Assembly (NCBI GenBank): GCA_951406725.2
Contig: OX597820.1
Location: forward strand, 55,800,001-55,864,000
From: Octopus vulgaris
Lineage: Eukaryota
Length of the DNA: 64,000 bases
Direction: 5' to 3'
The position numbers and the translations under genes were made by a program. Every line of letters starts with the position of its first letter. Within the stretch, counting starts at the first letter, position 1. Below, piece after piece: positions 29,323-60,893 of this stretch. A model generated the notes under the pieces. It had not been told where the DNA came from and searched no databases. It was given only the letters and a program-made list of their open reading frames with translations.

Positions 29323-29407
29323 TCATTTTTCTTCATCACTATCAGATCTGCCGGGATTAGATGTGCGACTTGACAGTGCAGCATGTGATCTGTCTGGAGA
29401 TGGAGAT
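29323..29407 (-). CDS. SR protein last coding exon (SPSPDRSHAALSSRTSNPGRSDSDEEK*)
   Basis: tttctattttcag| acceptor; in frame; TGA at 29325-29323. Confidence 0.88.
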
Positions 29408-31488: not shown

Positions 31489-31938
31489 CTGTCCACTTTC
31501 ATTTTACGAGACTTTCTCATGGGATGGTCACTGATTTCACCAGTTTCCAAGTCAGAACCATCATAACTAGGGGAACGCGACCGGCTATTTTTCATAGTCA
31601 ACTTCTCTTTCCTCAGTCCAGACTGCTCACTGGTATCAGATTGACCACCATCATGATTGTCCAGATCATGACTAGCATCGTGTCTAGAACGAGATGAATA
31701 CTTGCTTCGTTGATCATCTGGTGAAACTGACCGGTTCCGTGGTGAACGCTGTCGGCTGGACTCCTCAATGTCATCCAGAACACGAAATAATCTCGGGCGC
31801 AAGGGCGGGCTCTGAGAGCGGCTGTTTGACCTACTGCGATAGTGCTCATCTTTCTTGTGTCGCTGGGGAATATCCAGGGAACTATGTCCTCCTCTTGATC
31901 TTGAGAGCTTTTCAGGACTTCGCGAACGACTGTAAGAC
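31489..31938 (-). CDS. SR protein long RS/acidic exon (SYSRSRSPEKLSRSR...SDLETGEISDHPMRKSRKMKVD)
   Basis: attcag| and |gttagt; 450 nt open in frame, phase 2-2; overlaps ORF 31473..31802. Confidence 0.9.
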
Positions 31939-33259: not shown

Positions 33260-33307
33260 CTGAAACGTGACCTGGAACGAGATCTTGAGTAAGGGCTCCT
33301 CCTGGAC
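33260..33307 (-). CDS. SR protein RS-domain exon (SRRSPYSRSRSRSRF)
   Basis: ttttctag| and |gtaagc; 48 nt, phase 2-2. Confidence 0.9.
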
Positions 33308-33593: not shown

Positions 33594-33650
33594 CTTGAGT
33601 AGCTTCTGTCACGGGATCTAGACCTGGAATAGCGAGAATCAGAACCGGAT
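33594..33650 (-). CDS. SR protein RS-domain exon (SGSDSRYSRSRSRDRSYS)
   Basis: ttcag| and |gtaggt; 57 nt, phase 2-2; RS dipeptides. Confidence 0.9.
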
Positions 33651-36690: not shown

Positions 36691-36717
36691 CTTACAGCAG
36701 TATTGGTGTGATCTTCC
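36691..36717 (-). other. Candidate 27-nt in-frame microexon of the SR gene (EDHTNTAV)
   Basis: ttcatctattccag|GGAAGATCACACCAATACTGCTGTAAG|gtgagc; phase 2-2 and no stop. Confidence 0.55.
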
Positions 36718-42545: not shown

Positions 42546-45500
42546 GAACACACATTACTTAGTGACAAGAGTCTGGCTGCACTTAGAAACATATGCAACC
42601 TGACTTAACATATAGCAACATCTTAATATGCATTTCCAGATGGCTCACCATTTCTCTTCATAATGGCAGCTCCTAAGCCTACAGACAGTTACAGATGACA
42701 GCTATAAACTTACCTCACTATGCTCCTAATGCCTGGCAACTGCTACTTTTGACAGCTAAAACACACTCTTCCTCCTCACCTGACAGCCATAAGTAATTGA
42801 ACTTTGCTTCCAGATATCCAGTAAGTTAGTGTGTGTATATATGTATGTGTGTGTGTGTTAGATCACTTTATTCAGCTACTTGTAAACATTCCAGTGTTTT
42901 GTTTCTCTCTCTCAGACACTACAGGTTTTAAAGACACACAAGGAACATTCTAAACAATAGGATGGTTATGGTTGAATGCTTTTGAACAGGGTTCACCAAA
43001 GGTTAAACAACAACAAAAAACAACAATGAGTGAGTGAACACCACAAATATCAGAACAAGTTCCTCAAAATTGCCATTTATGGTTCACACTTCAGACATAA
43101 TACTTTTTACTATTCAGACAAAAAGTAATATGCATCTCTGTGACACAAACCTAGAAATGTTTAAAAAAGACTCACAGCAAATAATATTTTAAATACTAGC
43201 TTGGTTCAAAGAGTCACAACATTGGCTTAACCAATATATGAACTGAAGAACTGCAGCCCAACATCTTAATCAAGTACATTGTTCTTCAAATACGAAGCTA
43301 TGAAAATGTTGAGTGAGTGTAATAATCCTAGGCAATCAAACTTTGTATTTATTGAACTATTTCTTGCTAGCATTTTGTTAATTTTGGCCAACATTAATCA
43401 TTCTACACCCTCTCATTTCAGACAGATACAAAAGGAAAATGAAGATCTTTGTGTGTGAGAGGGCAGGCAGCAGATGTGGGAAATTTGCCATATCCACATA
43501 AAAAATCCTGGATCTAGAACTTTACCAGAACATACTGTGGTCTTGATAAATTCAACTGAACTTCCATGATTTTCCTTTACCTTCAATTTCTTCCTTTACT
43601 CATTCTGCTCACATTAATTTGTTATTTTATTTCTAAGAATTTTATTCCAAAATAACACATTCCTTTCCTCTACCTTAGAGAATTCTCCCCACAAATTGCA
43701 ATCGTAATACGTTTTTAAGAGATGAAGCATCCTGTTTTCTCTATAGCAATATTAAAATGATGATTAAAATAGGTCGTATATATGTGTGTGTATGGGGAGG
43801 TGTGTGTGCATATATACACACACAAACACGGCATGTATGTATATATATATATACACACACACTACATACAGACATGTACACAAAGTGTGCATGCTCTTAC
43901 CATGAAGTGTATATTATTTTATGGCATGAGCACATAACCACATTTATGAATACATTCTGTCCATCTTTGCTTTCATAGCTCGATGCATGGTAGGCTCTGC
44001 TGGTACTGCTATAGTGCTGAAGAACAGGCTACATCATATATTGTGTTCGGAAACTTTTGCATCCTAGAACAGAACCCACTCAAATTGAGGTTATTGTCAG
44101 AGACAACGAGAAATTAGGAACAACCACAGCAAATGTGGAACAGAGATATCTGCATGGTGCTGCAAAACACATCTCAGTTGCAATCACTTGAAAAAGATGT
44201 GTTTTATATATGCCATCCATACATACACATATCCCAAACACTATTGCGAGATCATGGGTTCACTTCTTCAATTCTCAGACTGGGTGGTGTGTTGTGTAAT
44301 GAGCAAAACATTTCATCTTACATTGCTCTGCAACCACTGACATCTGGTGTGTGTCACACAGTACAGCTGTACAGGTAATGTTGATTTGATCACTAAACTA
44401 ATCATCTGTGCAGTTTATTCAGCAAGAAATTGCAGAATCATCTTTCTCAGACTCAAAAGACTACCCTTATCCCAAACACACATACATACACACTCAAATG
44501 TGTGTGTGTGTCCTGAAAATGGAATGAAGAAGCATGACAAAGGGGAGGAGGAGTTGATAACTCCAAATAAGAACTGATTTGAAGCTTGATGCCCTGTCCA
44601 ACCAATGCCAGTGTGGGAAAGTAGACATAAAATATATATATGTAATATTTATGTAAAAACTGAGGGGCTGAGTAATGATATTTTGAAAATATTTTCAGCT
44701 TTCCATTCAAACTCTGAATTAAGGACAACCTATCTCAGCAACATTTATTTAGTAATGGGCAATAACATTACTAAGTCAGCGGTTTTGAATTTCAGTTAGA
44801 CCATATTCTTGGAGGAGTATGAGAAAGACATTAAAATAAAAAGTGTCAACTGCCAAAACCTGAGACAATGTTATGAAGAACACGTTTAAATGAGATAACT
44901 CATCCAAGAGTAGAAACCATATTAGAAATGGTTTTTTCCAAAATCTTAATTATGGAGCATTGGCACCTTATAGGAGGTACACTAAGATACAAAACCAAAT
45001 TTATATAACAACAATGTAATATAGCTGTAACTGATCAAAGCAGTAGTCAATTTTTTTTTTAGCAAAAATCTTACAGCATAAAGAAAGAATCCCCTATCCA
45101 GCAGATTGTTCAATCTTTCATTTCTGAACTTGCATTTGGTACAAAGTATGTCAAAGCTGGCTGCATCCAATGTAATTTATACTAAATATGATGCATGCTA
45201 GAATTATCACAGGTGTCCACAGACACACCAACCTAGATATGATAGTTTTTACTTTGTCTTTGCATTAGTCACTTGCCTAACATACTGAACGCAATAGTAG
45301 ACTAAGAGAAAATGCATCAGTTTAGCAATCAAGGGCCGTTAGCTTAGTTTCAATTTCTATCAAAGGAAGACAAGGAGCTGACACTAGGAGTTACACACAA
45401 GTTAAACACAAACTAAACTGGTAAAAAGGTGCAATTAATTGAAAACTAACACAGGAAACACTTTGGAACCGAGAGTAAACACTGAAAATACACAGTAGTG

Positions 45501-45712
45501 AATAGAGCATTTTGAAGAATATGGTTTTAAGTATTAAGTTGCTTGCAGGGAAGAAAGTTAGGCAAACAGTTTAGCATATAGCAAAGTAAAAGAATATATA
45601 TGTAAAAGAAAAAGAAAAAAAAAAAAGAAAAAAGAGGAAAAAAACTATTGTCACATAGTTCTATGCTGGCTGCGGTGTGCTGAGGAACAGGGCCAAAATG
45701 AACGTTACTTAC

Positions 45713-46394
45713 GAGGACAAGCAACTAGCCTAGTACATAGTCCCAATACTAGGTGACGTGACTTTTGTGAAAATGAAACCAGCAGGAGAGGTTATATTGC
45801 GTGGTCAGGGATTGACCATTGGTCAGTCGAATAATATCACGTAAAAGGTGCCATGTGTTGCACCTACACATGTTGGTATGAGAGGAGAGGGCTAGGGTTG
45901 ATGGCCTTCGGACTCCTCAATCGAGGGCTGGTTCGAAAGAATTGGTCTAGGTTAATGAGTACGGTTGTTGTAGTAGTAGTGGTAGTAGTAGTAGTAGTAG
46001 TAAACTGGTGACAGATGTAGAATTGGATTGGTCAGATGTAGATGTGGAGTCTAGTCTTCGGAGAGCCGTTACAATTGGTCTAGGATAACATGTACAGACG
46101 ACTGACAACTGTAGCATTTGGTGTCTTTGGTAGTCTCCGCAGAGAGCAGGGGTCAGTCACTCAGCAACACTGAGTTTGTAACTCGGTGGAAAGTGAGACG
46201 CAGTAGGTCGTCCAGGAATGGAGTTGTACTGTTTGGAGACAACGGAATGCCAGATCGAAGACGCAGATCATGCGGCTGACTATGATTGGTGTGTAGCAGA
46301 AGTATCTGGTGGTAGATAGTGTGCGGAGGAGACGTGTGACGCAGTAGGAGGAGCGCCGTAGCACAGTGAGGACGCACGACTGTATGACTGATCC
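45713..46394 (-). other. Candidate poison (PTC) cassette exon of the SR gene, 682 nt
   Basis: gtttgtctag| and |gtaagtaa; GC/CpG-richer than the flanks. In-frame TAG at 46282-46280 after 37 codons. Lies in the intron following the RRM. Confidence 0.72.
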
Positions 46395-49300
46395 CTAGAC
46401 AAACATGGGCATACAAGCATATCAAGTAAATGGCAAAGCAAAACCTAAATCCATGGATGTCATAAAGGTGGTCACTTAACCACCAGCTGACGACAGAAAT
46501 ACTATATTTTACACTGGCTGCAGGGATCATAGTGGAAATTAGTTTTAGCCAAAATGGAGAGCTTCTAAATAGTCTCAATAAATTATTCTACAATTGGGGG
46601 GTGGGGTGAAAAATATTTCTTTGGTTATAAACATCTTTGAAAAGTACTTCCCTGTTCAGTTACCTATAAACTTGATTAGATGGCAAGAGTAAATATTTTG
46701 ATATTTGTTTTAATTAAACATTATAATTACAGACAACTTTACTGAATATCAGCATGATGATTGCACACATCAGCTTTTGGAGAGAAAGGCTGTTTTCTTT
46801 TTTTTTTTTGTCTTTGCGTATGTGATAGACTGCATCTATTGATGTATAAGTGTGGAATAAGCCAAAGAAATAATACTCAGTGTCTTAGGGTATAACCAAT
46901 AATGATTTCTAATGTAAGCATATTGCTTAGGGAAAGAGAATGTGTGATGTTCATGCTTTTCTCAATTGATGAATTAATTCAAAAGCAATTATTTTAAAAT
47001 CAGTATCATACTAGTGAATGTACTGGTGGAAAATTGATTCCAATACTATGGTCTTTTGCTTAGGCAGAATACAGATAGTTGCAAAGGCAAAGTTTTGTTT
47101 GTTAGAGGATTCACACCAGCCAACAACAAACCAATGAAAAAGCATTTATTTTTGCTAAGCTGCGTAGATATAGCAGCCAAACTTCCCTTAAATCACACTT
47201 TGCTGTCTTAGAAAAATAAAAGGACACATAAGATAATGTAGTCCTAGGTAGAATGGCCACAACTGGAATGCCTTTCATTACAGATCTATTTAATCAGAAT
47301 GGACATGAAGCTAAACAGCACTCAAAGAATAACAGTTTAAGTGTTTTTCATGTCTAGATTCCTGCTTCTCATGTAAATGTTACCACTCTACCTAAGCTTT
47401 ACAACTCTTCCTTTCCAGGTTGGCTGCAGCACATTCAACTACCACCTATATACAGCTAACAAACTTATTCAAGCTAAATTCTTATTTCAATCATAATAAC
47501 AATCCAGACACTAGTTTATAACCAAAAAAAGAAAAGAAAAAAAAGAAAGGAAACTTCAGTACAAAGAGTTAGAAGAGTGGGGGAGATTCCATGCAACCAG
47601 TGTAACAAAATCTAGAAATAATATAGTTGGAATTCACTGTACTTAATGCTTCACTTTGGATAAAAAAGAAACAAATTACAAACAAAAAAATTACAAGTTT
47701 TCATTTACAACCAAATAAAAAAAAATTGTATATTTTTTGAGTATATTATTTCTCATATCAGAACAGTACCTGCAATAAAAAGTGTACAGATTACTAATCA
47801 AAGAATAGACTTGTGATAAAGTAATTTGAAACAACATATGGGACCAGAAGCCCTGGGGAGTCGATTTTAGAATCTAGAGTTCAAAGTTTCCCAGTGAAAT
47901 TGACTTTTGTAGAACTTTGCACTAAAGGAGATTAAGAATTATATAGTCAAATGTGATGATGAACAATCCAATATCATTAGAAAGAAATTATTTTATGACA
48001 ATGCCAACATGGAATTTAAAGTTCTTCCCACTGAATTTAATGAATTAAATGGTGATAATATTTATGATGAAATTAGCATTAAAATTCCTTTAAATTTTTC
48101 TGAAAACTAGGAGATATTTCAGATATTGTAAACCCAGTAATTTAGCTAAATTAACAACAGAATACACCCCAACTCCTCAAAAAAAATTTAAGTTAAATTA
48201 TTTTCTCAATGGAATGATTGTTATTCTCTTAGAAAATATAAGATGTAAATAATTGTGACAGAAATACTTAAAGGTGTTAATAGACTAAAATTACTATGAG
48301 TAAAATTTTGTCTAAAATATTGTTCTGAAATTGATTTCTAACACACAGTTCTCAATAATAAAGAAAAGCATTTTAGTTACTAGACAACTAGAACTCACTG
48401 GAAGTCGCTTAGGTCAGTAATTAAAAAATTTCATGGGTTTGTTAACCTATAAATCACACACATCTGTGGAAGTGAAGTCCAAAGAATAAAAGTCATCATG
48501 CTGATTTGAAAGTTGAGAAATTTGTCAAAGAAGAATACACAAACCAACAACACAACATCGACAGAAATGCAAGAGAATATTTCATACATAAATGAACTGA
48601 ACTTAAAAGAAAAATACTGTAACCTTTTTAATCTAAATATATGTCAGACAAGATATTCTAAATTTTGGTAACATTTACATGCAAAAGTTTAAACTAATTA
48701 TTGCTCAGTTAAAATAAAACTATATCCACAGCAGACATAACTGTAGTCTGCATTCTATCAGAGCATCCATTAGTGTGTTGACATGTCTGCAGGCCTAGGA
48801 AAACATGAATATTTCCAACATAAAGAACTCTGGCCAAAAACAGAATCTTATATTCCCAGGTTTCTCCGCTCTCTCTCTCTCACTGGCACATGTCAATCCA
48901 AACACACACACACATCTGTTTTTGGTTATGGAGAAGTAAAATGCTATTTTTCCATGGTCTAGAAATGCATACTGAAGAAAGATCCTTTTCAAAGTAGTTT
49001 TTCCTCATTAGTGGGGGTGGGGAGTTGTGAAGATTTAAAAAAGTCGACAAATTGCCATGTTTAATAAAATAAACAGAATTCCCAACTTTTTAAACTTGTT
49101 TAAACCTCTTTGAAGAAAGAAGAATGGTATCAATGTAAATTCTAGTTTGTCTTCTCATTAATGATGAAGGAGACAAGGGCAAAAAAACTTTTGTTAATAG
49201 TTTGGTGATATTTGTCATTTTGAAAAATCAAGCCTTAAAATAATATCTAACTGAAGACTAGGTTTAGGATATTCAAGAAAAATTGATACACAAGAACCAA

Positions 49301-53207: not shown

Positions 53208-53321
53208 CGACGCCAATGGCCTCCAGAATGACCCATGCCTCTCCGTCTAGAATTTCCTCTTGGTTTCCTTGTTTGGTATGGACGAGCATGTTCTACACGA
53301 ACTCTTCGACCACTAACAGAT
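53208..53321 (-). CDS. SR protein exon: end of RRM plus R/G linker (SVSGRRVRVEHARPYQTRKPRGNSRRRGMGHSGGHWR)
   Basis: Pyrimidine tract then gaag| acceptor, |gtatgt donor; 114 nt, phase 2-2. 'G.RVRVE' is the last RRM strand. Confidence 0.92.
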
Positions 53322-56041: not shown

Positions 56042-56119
56042 CTGCCATCAAGGTCTCTGACAGCGCGTTCAGCATCTTCTGGGTATTTGAAAACCAAAAA
56101 TGCAAATCCTGGTGGGTTT
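56042..56119 (-). CDS. SR splicing factor (SRSF3/SRSF7/Rbp1-like), RRM exon (NPPGFAFLVFKYPEDAERAVRDLDGR)
   Basis: tttag| and |gtaagg on -; 78 nt. Close to SRSF3 '[27 protein letters not shown]'. The upstream RRM exon was not found within the window. Confidence 0.93.
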
Positions 56120-57053: not shown

Positions 57054-57211
57054 CGGTCAGTTAGCTTTCTAGTTACGAATTGTATTTCTGATGTTGGTGC
57101 TTAGTATTGTTGCTATTGCTGGTATTAGTAATGTTGCTGTGGTGGTGGTAATGGTGGTAGTAGTAGTAGAGGTGGTGGTAATAGTGGTGGTGGTAGTAGT
57201 AGTTGGTATTG
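57054..57211 (-). other. Second candidate poison exon within the RRM-coding region, 158 nt
   Basis: ttgtttcttcattcag| and CG|gtaagt; frameshifting, with an in-frame TAA at 57075-57073; (CTA/CCA)n-rich. Confidence 0.45.
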
Positions 57212-58987: not shown

Positions 58988-59087
58988 GCAGGGATATGGT
59001 CCAGGTGGTGGGGTTCCAGACAGGTCTACGATCAAGCCTATGGCAGTGGAGACCCCTGGAACCCCACCACCTGGACCATATCCCTGC
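58988..59087. repeat. Perfect 32-bp GC-rich inverted repeat with a 36-nt spacer
   Basis: gcagggatatggtccaggtggtggggttccag (58988-59019) and its exact reverse complement (59056-59087). Confidence 0.95.
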
Positions 59088-60893
59088 TCATTGATATCAG
59101 GGCAGAGGTGGCTATCCACACTTGCAGGCCCCACAAGTCAGAGTGACTGTTCCACTCTCTCACCACCCTCTGGGGCAATGCCTTTTCCATTTTGTCTGCT
59201 GGGACCAAGAGGTGGTCTGATTTACAGGAAATCCACGAGAATGTAAGAATGTTGTAGCTTACTACATGAGATTGGTCAGTATAAAGCAATTAGAATATTA
59301 TTTATTGTAATAAATTAGTAAACTTATGGTTGGAATTATATTGTAGATTTTATAATTGCTTCAACCATAGGTATAAGGCCACTAAATTTGGAGAGAGGGA
59401 AGAGTCAATTTATTATACAGACCCATACAATGAGGAAAGGCAAATAGGAGATATACTAAATACTGCAAAAACATTTTATCCTCCTCAATATTTATCTTCC
59501 AGACCACCACCTTTGATATTATTCTCAATAATGAGAATATGAATAATGAACAGATCAGTAAATAAGGTGTGTTATTTCCTGACAGCATTTATTATCCCAG
59601 GATTAAGATTAATGAGAGAGGCAATGACCTCAGTCAATAATGTACTGAACAAACTGTGGAGACAGAGATATCAATGGTATTCTATCATCAACACTGTATT
59701 AGGTCTGCAACCAAGACATTTGTTCCAAACCACTCAGCAAAACTGATAAAAATCTTAATTTGCAGATTTCAGCTTGCCCTTCAAAGAGAGGGTTTTCTTT
59801 TTCTTTCCTTGTGGTCAAACCCAAAACCTCTGTCATGATACTCATCCTTAGAATTCATCCTATCACTCATCAGAATCACAGACTAGGACCTCTCCTCTTG
59901 TATCCATCTATCTAGGACAAATTTGGCATTAAGTTCTTTTTCTGGTTACTGAAACCTATTTGGCAGGAAACAGCTTCAACAGGTACAAACATTTCCATAC
60001 AAGACAATAAAAATTTCATGACCGGTGCTAAAGCAGAAATGAATGAATGAATGAATGGCCAAGCTTAACAGGAAAGATATAAAATAAGCACACCTTCCCT
60101 TGAACAAACACAAAAGGATTATTCTAAATATATTAAAAATAATCACTTAAGCATAATACTCAGCATGTATAAACATGTCTTTTTAGAAAAGTAGCTCTGT
60201 CTATGTATGTCACACACTAACATAGCTTTATAAGTTACAGCTCTGCACAGATCAGAATATGAGAGAACACCTGTAGTCAGAAATGACCATGTATAATGAA
60301 TGTATGGACAGAGTACATCTCTCTCTCTCTCTCTTTCCCCCATCACACATTCCTAAAAAGATATATAAGCTACAGTAGACAAATAAATAGACCTTGTTAA
60401 TACCTCCATCAGCCTTTCATGTATACAAAGCAGGAAACAACAGAGTGGATTATTACAAAACCCTATTACAATACTATCATATCACTATCATTCCTACTAG
60501 TAGTAGTAGACATATCTCCTAGCCTTGAGAACAATAACCACTGCTAGCTATCTCTAATATAGGTTAGCCAGTAGCTAAAATCTGGCTCTGGGTTGCTGTT
60601 GGTAACAGCATAACAATGACAAGCTCCCCCATCCACCCCACCGTATCTAGTTCAGAGGGGTGGGGTCTGTCGTCATTAGTTCTTTTCAGGCTTTATTCCA
60701 CTATTCCACCCCCTTTCAAACACATGACTATTAATATACAAATAATAAAAAAAAATATATAGAAACTTTGCATAAAACAATTCTATTGTATTGCAACAGT
60801 GATCAACAACCACTATCATTATCCATCACAGTGACCAAAATGACAAAGACCACCACATATGTACATGTGTGTGTGTGTATGTGTGTGTATACA

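Follow-up and report, generated by a model that had tools for sequence, protein, structure and literature searches.

Does a 682-nt block in a long intron of an SR-type gene of Octopus vulgaris act as a poison exon, that is, as an optional exon whose early stop would expose the mRNA to nonsense-mediated decay (NMD)? The block had been picked out in a first-pass annotation, made from the letters alone, of a 64,000-nt stretch of contig OX597820.1 (the window, G000:C7:55800001-55864000; coordinates without a prefix are window positions). We rebuilt the host gene on the minus strand of G000:C7. Its first coding exon lies beyond the window (G000:C7:55888319-55888464) and is followed, all on the minus strand, by exon A (56042..56119), encoding the middle of an RNA recognition motif (RRM) with RNP1, exon B (53208..53321), encoding the end of the RRM and a linker and closing with a phase-2 donor, the 27-nt in-frame microexon m (36691..36717), exon C (33594..33650), where the RS domain starts, exon D (33260..33307), which continues it and matches the annotated protein P0008, exon E (31489..31938), encoding the RS-rich tail, and the last coding exon F, whose coding part (29323..29407) runs to the normal TGA. 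The rebuilt product as a whole matches P0008 (CAI9725700.1) and has one RRM (Pfam RRM_1, E 7e-15) and an RS-rich tail, with RS repeats encoded by exons C-E; no zinc knuckle was found in it by Pfam scan. The host is an SR splicing-factor gene (RRM plus RS domain). Microexon m, known from annotated isoforms with and without it and from loose contig ends, is also present in cuttlefish; m and C (the latter skipped in some annotated isoforms) are each optional in frame, and the annotations of O. sinensis and O. bimaculoides include the four possible combinations. Upstream of the first coding exon, at about G000:C7 55893001-55899000 (L013-L014), lies a stretch of 5-6 kb with about 50% GC and 33-60 CpG/kb, which may be another gene or a young repeat.

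The block itself, hereafter exon P (45713..46394, minus strand), sits in the 19,557-nt intron 53207-33651. A recheck of the sequence returned the coordinates, length, strand and splice sites of the first-pass annotation: the exon is bordered by an acceptor AG and a donor GTAAGT, with pyrimidines at 14 of the 20 positions before the acceptor and a donor match of 7/9, both inside the range of the host gene's other exons. The annotation's description of a CpG-containing island in an AT-rich 19.5-kb intron was likewise borne out, exon P having 47.9% GC and 26 CpG (o/e 0.74) and the remaining host intron 32.8% GC (o/e 0.17). Joining exon B to P reproduced the claimed reading frame of RRM, 37 new residues and an in-frame TAG (46280..46282, minus strand), giving a 150-residue RRM protein without RS domain; the TAG lies 567 nt before the donor of P, and more junctions follow downstream. 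No Pfam family was found for the 37-residue tail, and an Rfam search with exon P gave 0 matches at E<=1. An SRSF7-type Split-ORF was considered for exon P and rejected, as no ATG runs in frame into the RS exons: both ATGs of the exon in that frame (nt 576 and 657) hit stops (588 and 663) inside it.

Apart from an (ACT)n microsatellite (45964..46001, minus strand), the sole part that matches elsewhere in the genome, exon P is single-copy. In an own-genome search that skips very common words, 99 of 100 among the matches listed comprised the microsatellite and its edges only and the remaining one was the locus itself, so that a multi-copy transposon fragment, which the annotation had named as an outcome that would speak against its proposal, is not what we found. 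A second sense-strand repeat of similar kind, (ACT/ACC)n, lies in the large intron upstream of exon A (57124-57203, minus strand); the intron upstream of exon A also holds an inverted repeat pair of roughly 40 nt (58991-59092), spotted by eye.

Words of exon P were present at 0.96-0.97 in 20 of 24 listed sequencing runs, from 8 studies, and at 0.00 in the other four. Four of the 24 (X5, X7, X17 and X18) were aligned to 45648-46760, which covers the exon and its flanks only; their contigs make joins visible rather than inclusion levels, and exon-skipping junctions fall outside the aligned region. None of the 24 is recorded as RNA, and RNA origin was judged from exon-exon joins. The contigs of all three RNA-like runs aligned (X5, X7 and X18, from three studies) carry the upstream join 53208>46394: beyond the acceptor of P, each runs on for 26 letters that are exactly those closing exon B, at a distance of 6.8 kb. 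The X17 contig continues into the intron to 46588 and is DNA-like. A downstream junction of P was seen in two of the three RNA-like runs, leading to 33650 in one run and to microexon m at 36717 in two: at the donor of P, one X7 contig passes to exon C (30 letters) and another to m and then C, and X18 passes to m and then to D or E, the loose contig ends agreeing with exon ends letter for letter. The X5 contig extends 46 nt beyond the donor (45667..45712, minus strand) and stops at 45667 with no downstream junction in it, a weak hint, from one run, of intron bases past the donor. No internal joints or substitutions within exon P were listed in the aligned contigs, and the four aligned runs were identical to the window, including 194 intronic bases of X17; although their organism codes differ, we drew no cross-species evidence from them, as the sequences show no differences. 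Because the joins are absent from the genome and no second copy was found, they come from spliced RNA. Exon P is a genuinely spliced exon, and the junctions that the annotation had put forward (53208>46394; 45713>33650 or >36717) are all present in run contigs.

Its use is optional. The exon P peptide is in 0 of 10 members of the octopus protein cluster (protein annotations) and the full-length members skip P, which makes the exon an alternative cassette; the annotated proteins of O. vulgaris, O. sinensis, O. bimaculoides, Argonauta and cuttlefish skip it. The wide presence of its words among the runs may reflect an abundant isoform rather than an unstable one.

Conservation across species, to which the first-pass annotation had looked, took the form of two collinear blocks in a cuttlefish gene model, P0007 (CAE1230068.1), which carries a 43-residue insert between B and m. 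Octopus and cuttlefish split roughly 270-300 My ago. Block 1 (46316..46393, minus strand) is in frame and shares 25 of 27 residues with P0007, the junction codon counted (tblastn E 1e-14 against the window). It is better kept than each non-RRM coding exon (6-79%; B 29/38, m 5/9, C 15/19, D 1/16, E 99/150, F 15/27 identical) and comes near the RRM exons (84-100%). Block 2 (45867..45917, minus strand) lies past the stop and in another frame, and shares 13 of 17 residues with the model; its score of 52 compares with a maximum of 25 among 52 other intron windows and was reached by 0 of 1000 shuffles. There is no ATG within the open stretch of the block 2 frame in octopus. The cuttlefish evidence is a predicted protein and not DNA, a form in which conservation of the early stop itself is not visible, and we infer that the model stitched two pieces of one exon around stops. 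Since block 2 is retained beyond the stop, in a frame that cannot be translated, the constraint would be at least partly on nucleotides, which points to selection on the RNA sequence of exon P itself. Beyond cuttlefish, searches with the exon P peptide, which were weak, returned nothing real (1 match of 2 candidates, and 3 matches to repeat proteins); one metagenome (L044) gave a 47% match to the peptide with no DNA similarity at E<=1, and exon P showed no DNA similarity to the paralogous octopus loci (best E 1.1).

The host had been described as SRSF3/7-like, and this identity stood for the wider subfamily and fell for orthology. The solved structures (PDB) closest to its RRM are those of SRSF7 and SRSF3, and the best of 79 homologues came from cephalopods, bivalves, rotifers and bryozoans. 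In an unrooted tree built from 41 RRM rows (38 fetched proteins, with near-duplicates left out, and three own-genome genes; bootstrap not fully settled), the host group, with bivalve, rotifer and bryozoan proteins, was split from 29 canonical SRSF3/7 rows at 100/100, and two other octopus genes fell on the canonical side. By this tree the host is a separate paralogue and not an SRSF3/7 orthologue; among the homologues found, its group occurs only in spiralians. A zinc knuckle is present in the three other octopus genes, including the canonical SRSF7 (C29:28.63 Mb). The literature places 9G8/SRp20 in all bilaterians, according to the available part of PMC3173450. The host RRM keeps the equivalents of SRSF3 W40, F48, F50 and E79, with Y13 replaced by F, S81 by A and N82 by R. 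Positions S81 and N82 of SRSF3 help to read the first cytosine. Two phase-2 introns are common to the host and the canonical octopus SRSF7, among them the post-linker intron that houses P (same position and phase). Judged by RRM signature and intron positions, the host belongs to the wider SRSF3/7 subfamily.

As to what might bind exon P, the annotation had claimed a high density of SRSF3-type motifs. A C-rich, G-poor sense strand remained of this claim, whereas the specific motifs are not enriched beyond composition. WCWWC occurs 22 times in exon P against 14.7 expected (1000 dinucleotide shuffles, p=0.036), with 11 of the 22 matches in the microsatellite (46001-45964), and the enrichment over shuffled sequence is lost without it (11 vs 11.9 expected, p=0.67). 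GAC occurs 15 times against 12.7 in shuffled sequence (p=0.21) and GACGAC once; WGACNA, the one pattern of 11 found enriched in an exploratory comparison, occurs 7 times against 1.8 (p=0.003). The labels of the WGACNA, WCWWC, CNYC and GAY motifs are taken as background, in part from the annotation. Compared with 89 other equal-length windows of the pre-mRNA, exon P minus the microsatellite has the highest C content (31.5% vs a maximum of 26.6%) and the highest counts of CNYC (39) and GAC (15); its WCWWC count is equalled or exceeded in 4 of the 89, and its count of five SRSF3 pentamers derived from iCLIP (PMC10321290) in 39 of the 89. SRSF3 binds CU-rich, G-poor RNA, as described in the available part of PMC3439968. 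The composition of exon P agrees with an SR landing site, without telling which protein would bind there. As the WCWWC excess goes with the microsatellite and two RRM positions beside the conserved Glu differ, self-regulation through WCWWC is putative.

Exon P shows several traits of an SR-gene poison cassette: it lies in an SR gene, is spliced, is optional, has its stop more than 50 nt before a junction and is conserved in the cuttlefish model. We consider it probable that this stop-containing alternative cassette is a poison exon that limits the level of the SRSF3/7-like paralogue via NMD. High SR-protein activity would raise inclusion of P through binding to the C-rich, G-poor exon, inclusion would bring in the early stop, and the included mRNA would be degraded by NMD, so that binding, inclusion and decay would form a negative feedback on the level of the splicing factor. 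The binder would be, with roughly an even chance, the host protein itself, or else the canonical octopus SRSF7. Any transcript that escaped decay would yield the 150-residue RRM protein without RS domain. The stop of P counts as premature under the 50-nt junction rule as well as under the long-3'UTR model of NMD (as set out in the available part of PMC2689934), and the octopus genome encodes a UPF1 domain.

Would the exon instead be kept for its protein, a stable 150-residue RRM isoform whose conserved 37-residue tail lets it compete with full-length SR proteins? The 25 of 27 in-frame residues identical to the cuttlefish model, the occurrence of the isoform in many runs and the behaviour of a truncated SRSF7, which is RNA-binding yet splicing-defective (10.64898/2026.05.22.727176, in the text available), would suit such a role; block 2, however, has been conserved beyond the stop although its frame is unusable, a pattern that selection on protein cannot explain, the tail has no Pfam family, no restart ATG continues in frame into the RS exons, and a stand-alone truncated protein did not turn up in searches (itself weak evidence). 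We hold this role unlikely. Quite unlikely, too, is a main product in the form of a nuclear-held or early-ending RNA (by donor read-through, a retained intron or an alternative last exon) that ties up SR protein instead of acting as a substrate of cytoplasmic NMD. The X5 contig, with its 46 nt beyond the donor and no downstream junction, hints at such an RNA, and a retained intron of mammalian SRSF7 with many binding motifs builds nuclear bodies (PMC9022966, in the part available), but a single contig end is a weak hint, two of the three RNA-like runs show clean downstream splicing, and there is no AATAAA or ATTAAA near 45667, the nearest lying at 44749.

Two further explanations appear very improbable to us. 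Against noise splicing of a cryptic exon or of a transposon remnant, which the repeat-rich local octopus introns and the microsatellite inside P might suggest, stand the recurrence of exact junctions across independent studies, the own-genome matches listed (99 of 100 in the microsatellite region and the other at the locus, very common words skipped) and the conservation in cuttlefish; this reading is already largely refuted. Conservation surrounds editing sites in coleoids, and the blocks might by the same token be kept through pairing with another part of the pre-mRNA that guides A-to-I editing, with splicing incidental; among the matches listed, however, none at E<=1 paired exon P with the 59-kb pre-mRNA in antisense, its folding z-score was -1.83 (20 shuffles), and no substitutions were listed in the aligned contigs, although contigs drop rare variants.

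The poison-exon reading has precedents, compared here as described in the available parts of the cited sources. Exon 4 of human SRSF3, 456 nt in human and mouse, is a poison exon for which autoregulation and NMD are proven (PMC10321290). It resembles exon P as an optional, stop-bearing exon of a single-RRM SR gene with strong sequence conservation; in both, inclusion costs the product most or all of its RS domain, and the truncated protein predicted has 124 aa there and 150 aa in octopus. The octopus host differs in being a paralogue that falls outside the canonical SRSF3/7 clade, has an additional intron within its RRM and carries a longer tail (325 aa), and the octopus exon measures 682 nt and holds a microsatellite; autoregulation and NMD would, in octopus, be inferred features. 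SRSF3 also controls the poison exon of SRSF7 in mouse (PMC3439968), and the mammalian SRSF7 cassette/Split-ORF likewise places a stop cassette between the RNA-binding part and the RS domain (PMC9022966, 10.64898/2026.05.22.727176). The hint of read-through into the next intron in octopus is a further likeness to mammalian SRSF7, whereas the octopus host is without zinc knuckle and without an RS-frame restart ATG, and hence without a second Split-ORF. The C. elegans gene rsp-6 is the SRp20-like gene of that species. It offers an invertebrate parallel: its PTC isoform encodes an RRM without SR domain, and the PTC cassette isoform shifts in smg-1 and smg-2 mutants (PMC2265522). Unproductive splicing of SRSF4/5/6, deeply conserved across animals, is a similar case in a different SR subfamily; the available text of that study (PMC4379411) mentions neither SRSF7 nor molluscs (0 occurrences).

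Exon P is thus likely a new case, conserved between octopus and cuttlefish, of an already-known kind, the SR-gene poison cassette exon. The literature searched, which leaves most subscription journals outside and whose supplements could list such events, yielded no paper describing an SR poison exon in molluscs. Specialists would expect such an exon, and the surprise is moderate. The case would extend poison-exon dosage control of SR proteins to cephalopods, in a paralogue found only in spiralians among the homologues; it would allow a test of whether SR genes, once duplicated, retain or replace their unproductive splicing, and would supply a well-defined reporter event with which to ask if NMD operates in molluscs and by what route.

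The post-knuckle intron of the canonical octopus SRSF7, at the same position as that of exon P, holds a candidate cassette of 1332 nt (G000:C29:28638291-28639622, plus strand, L029) with AG/GTAAGT ends, 41 CpG and an in-frame TGA after 11 new residues; it has no DNA similarity to exon P. This second candidate exon in the same intron figures in a bolder scenario, which we offer tentatively and regard as doubtful: that the poison exon is older than the divergence of the spiralian paralogue and canonical SRSF3/7 and has survived in both copies, and that, having become near-ultraconserved in coleoids and gained a fixed 37-residue tail there, it acts as a decay switch and at the same time yields a dominant-negative RRM protein within a network of octopus SR proteins that regulate one another.

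Three minor observations concern the octopus paralogues. An intronless 242-residue SRSF7-like ORF with a zinc knuckle and Gly-rich insertions (G000:C7:47219148-47219876, plus strand, L016) groups with the C29 gene at 100/99; it looks like an intact retrocopy, which would be without any poison exon. A divergent knuckle-bearing SR gene with an RS stretch N-terminal to the RRM (G000:C29:30350000-30363200, plus strand, L018, L036-L037) sits on a long branch on the host gene's side of the tree. The knuckle exon of the canonical SRSF7 ends in two possible in-frame donors 21 nt apart, at G000:C29:28629161 and 28629182 (plus strand).
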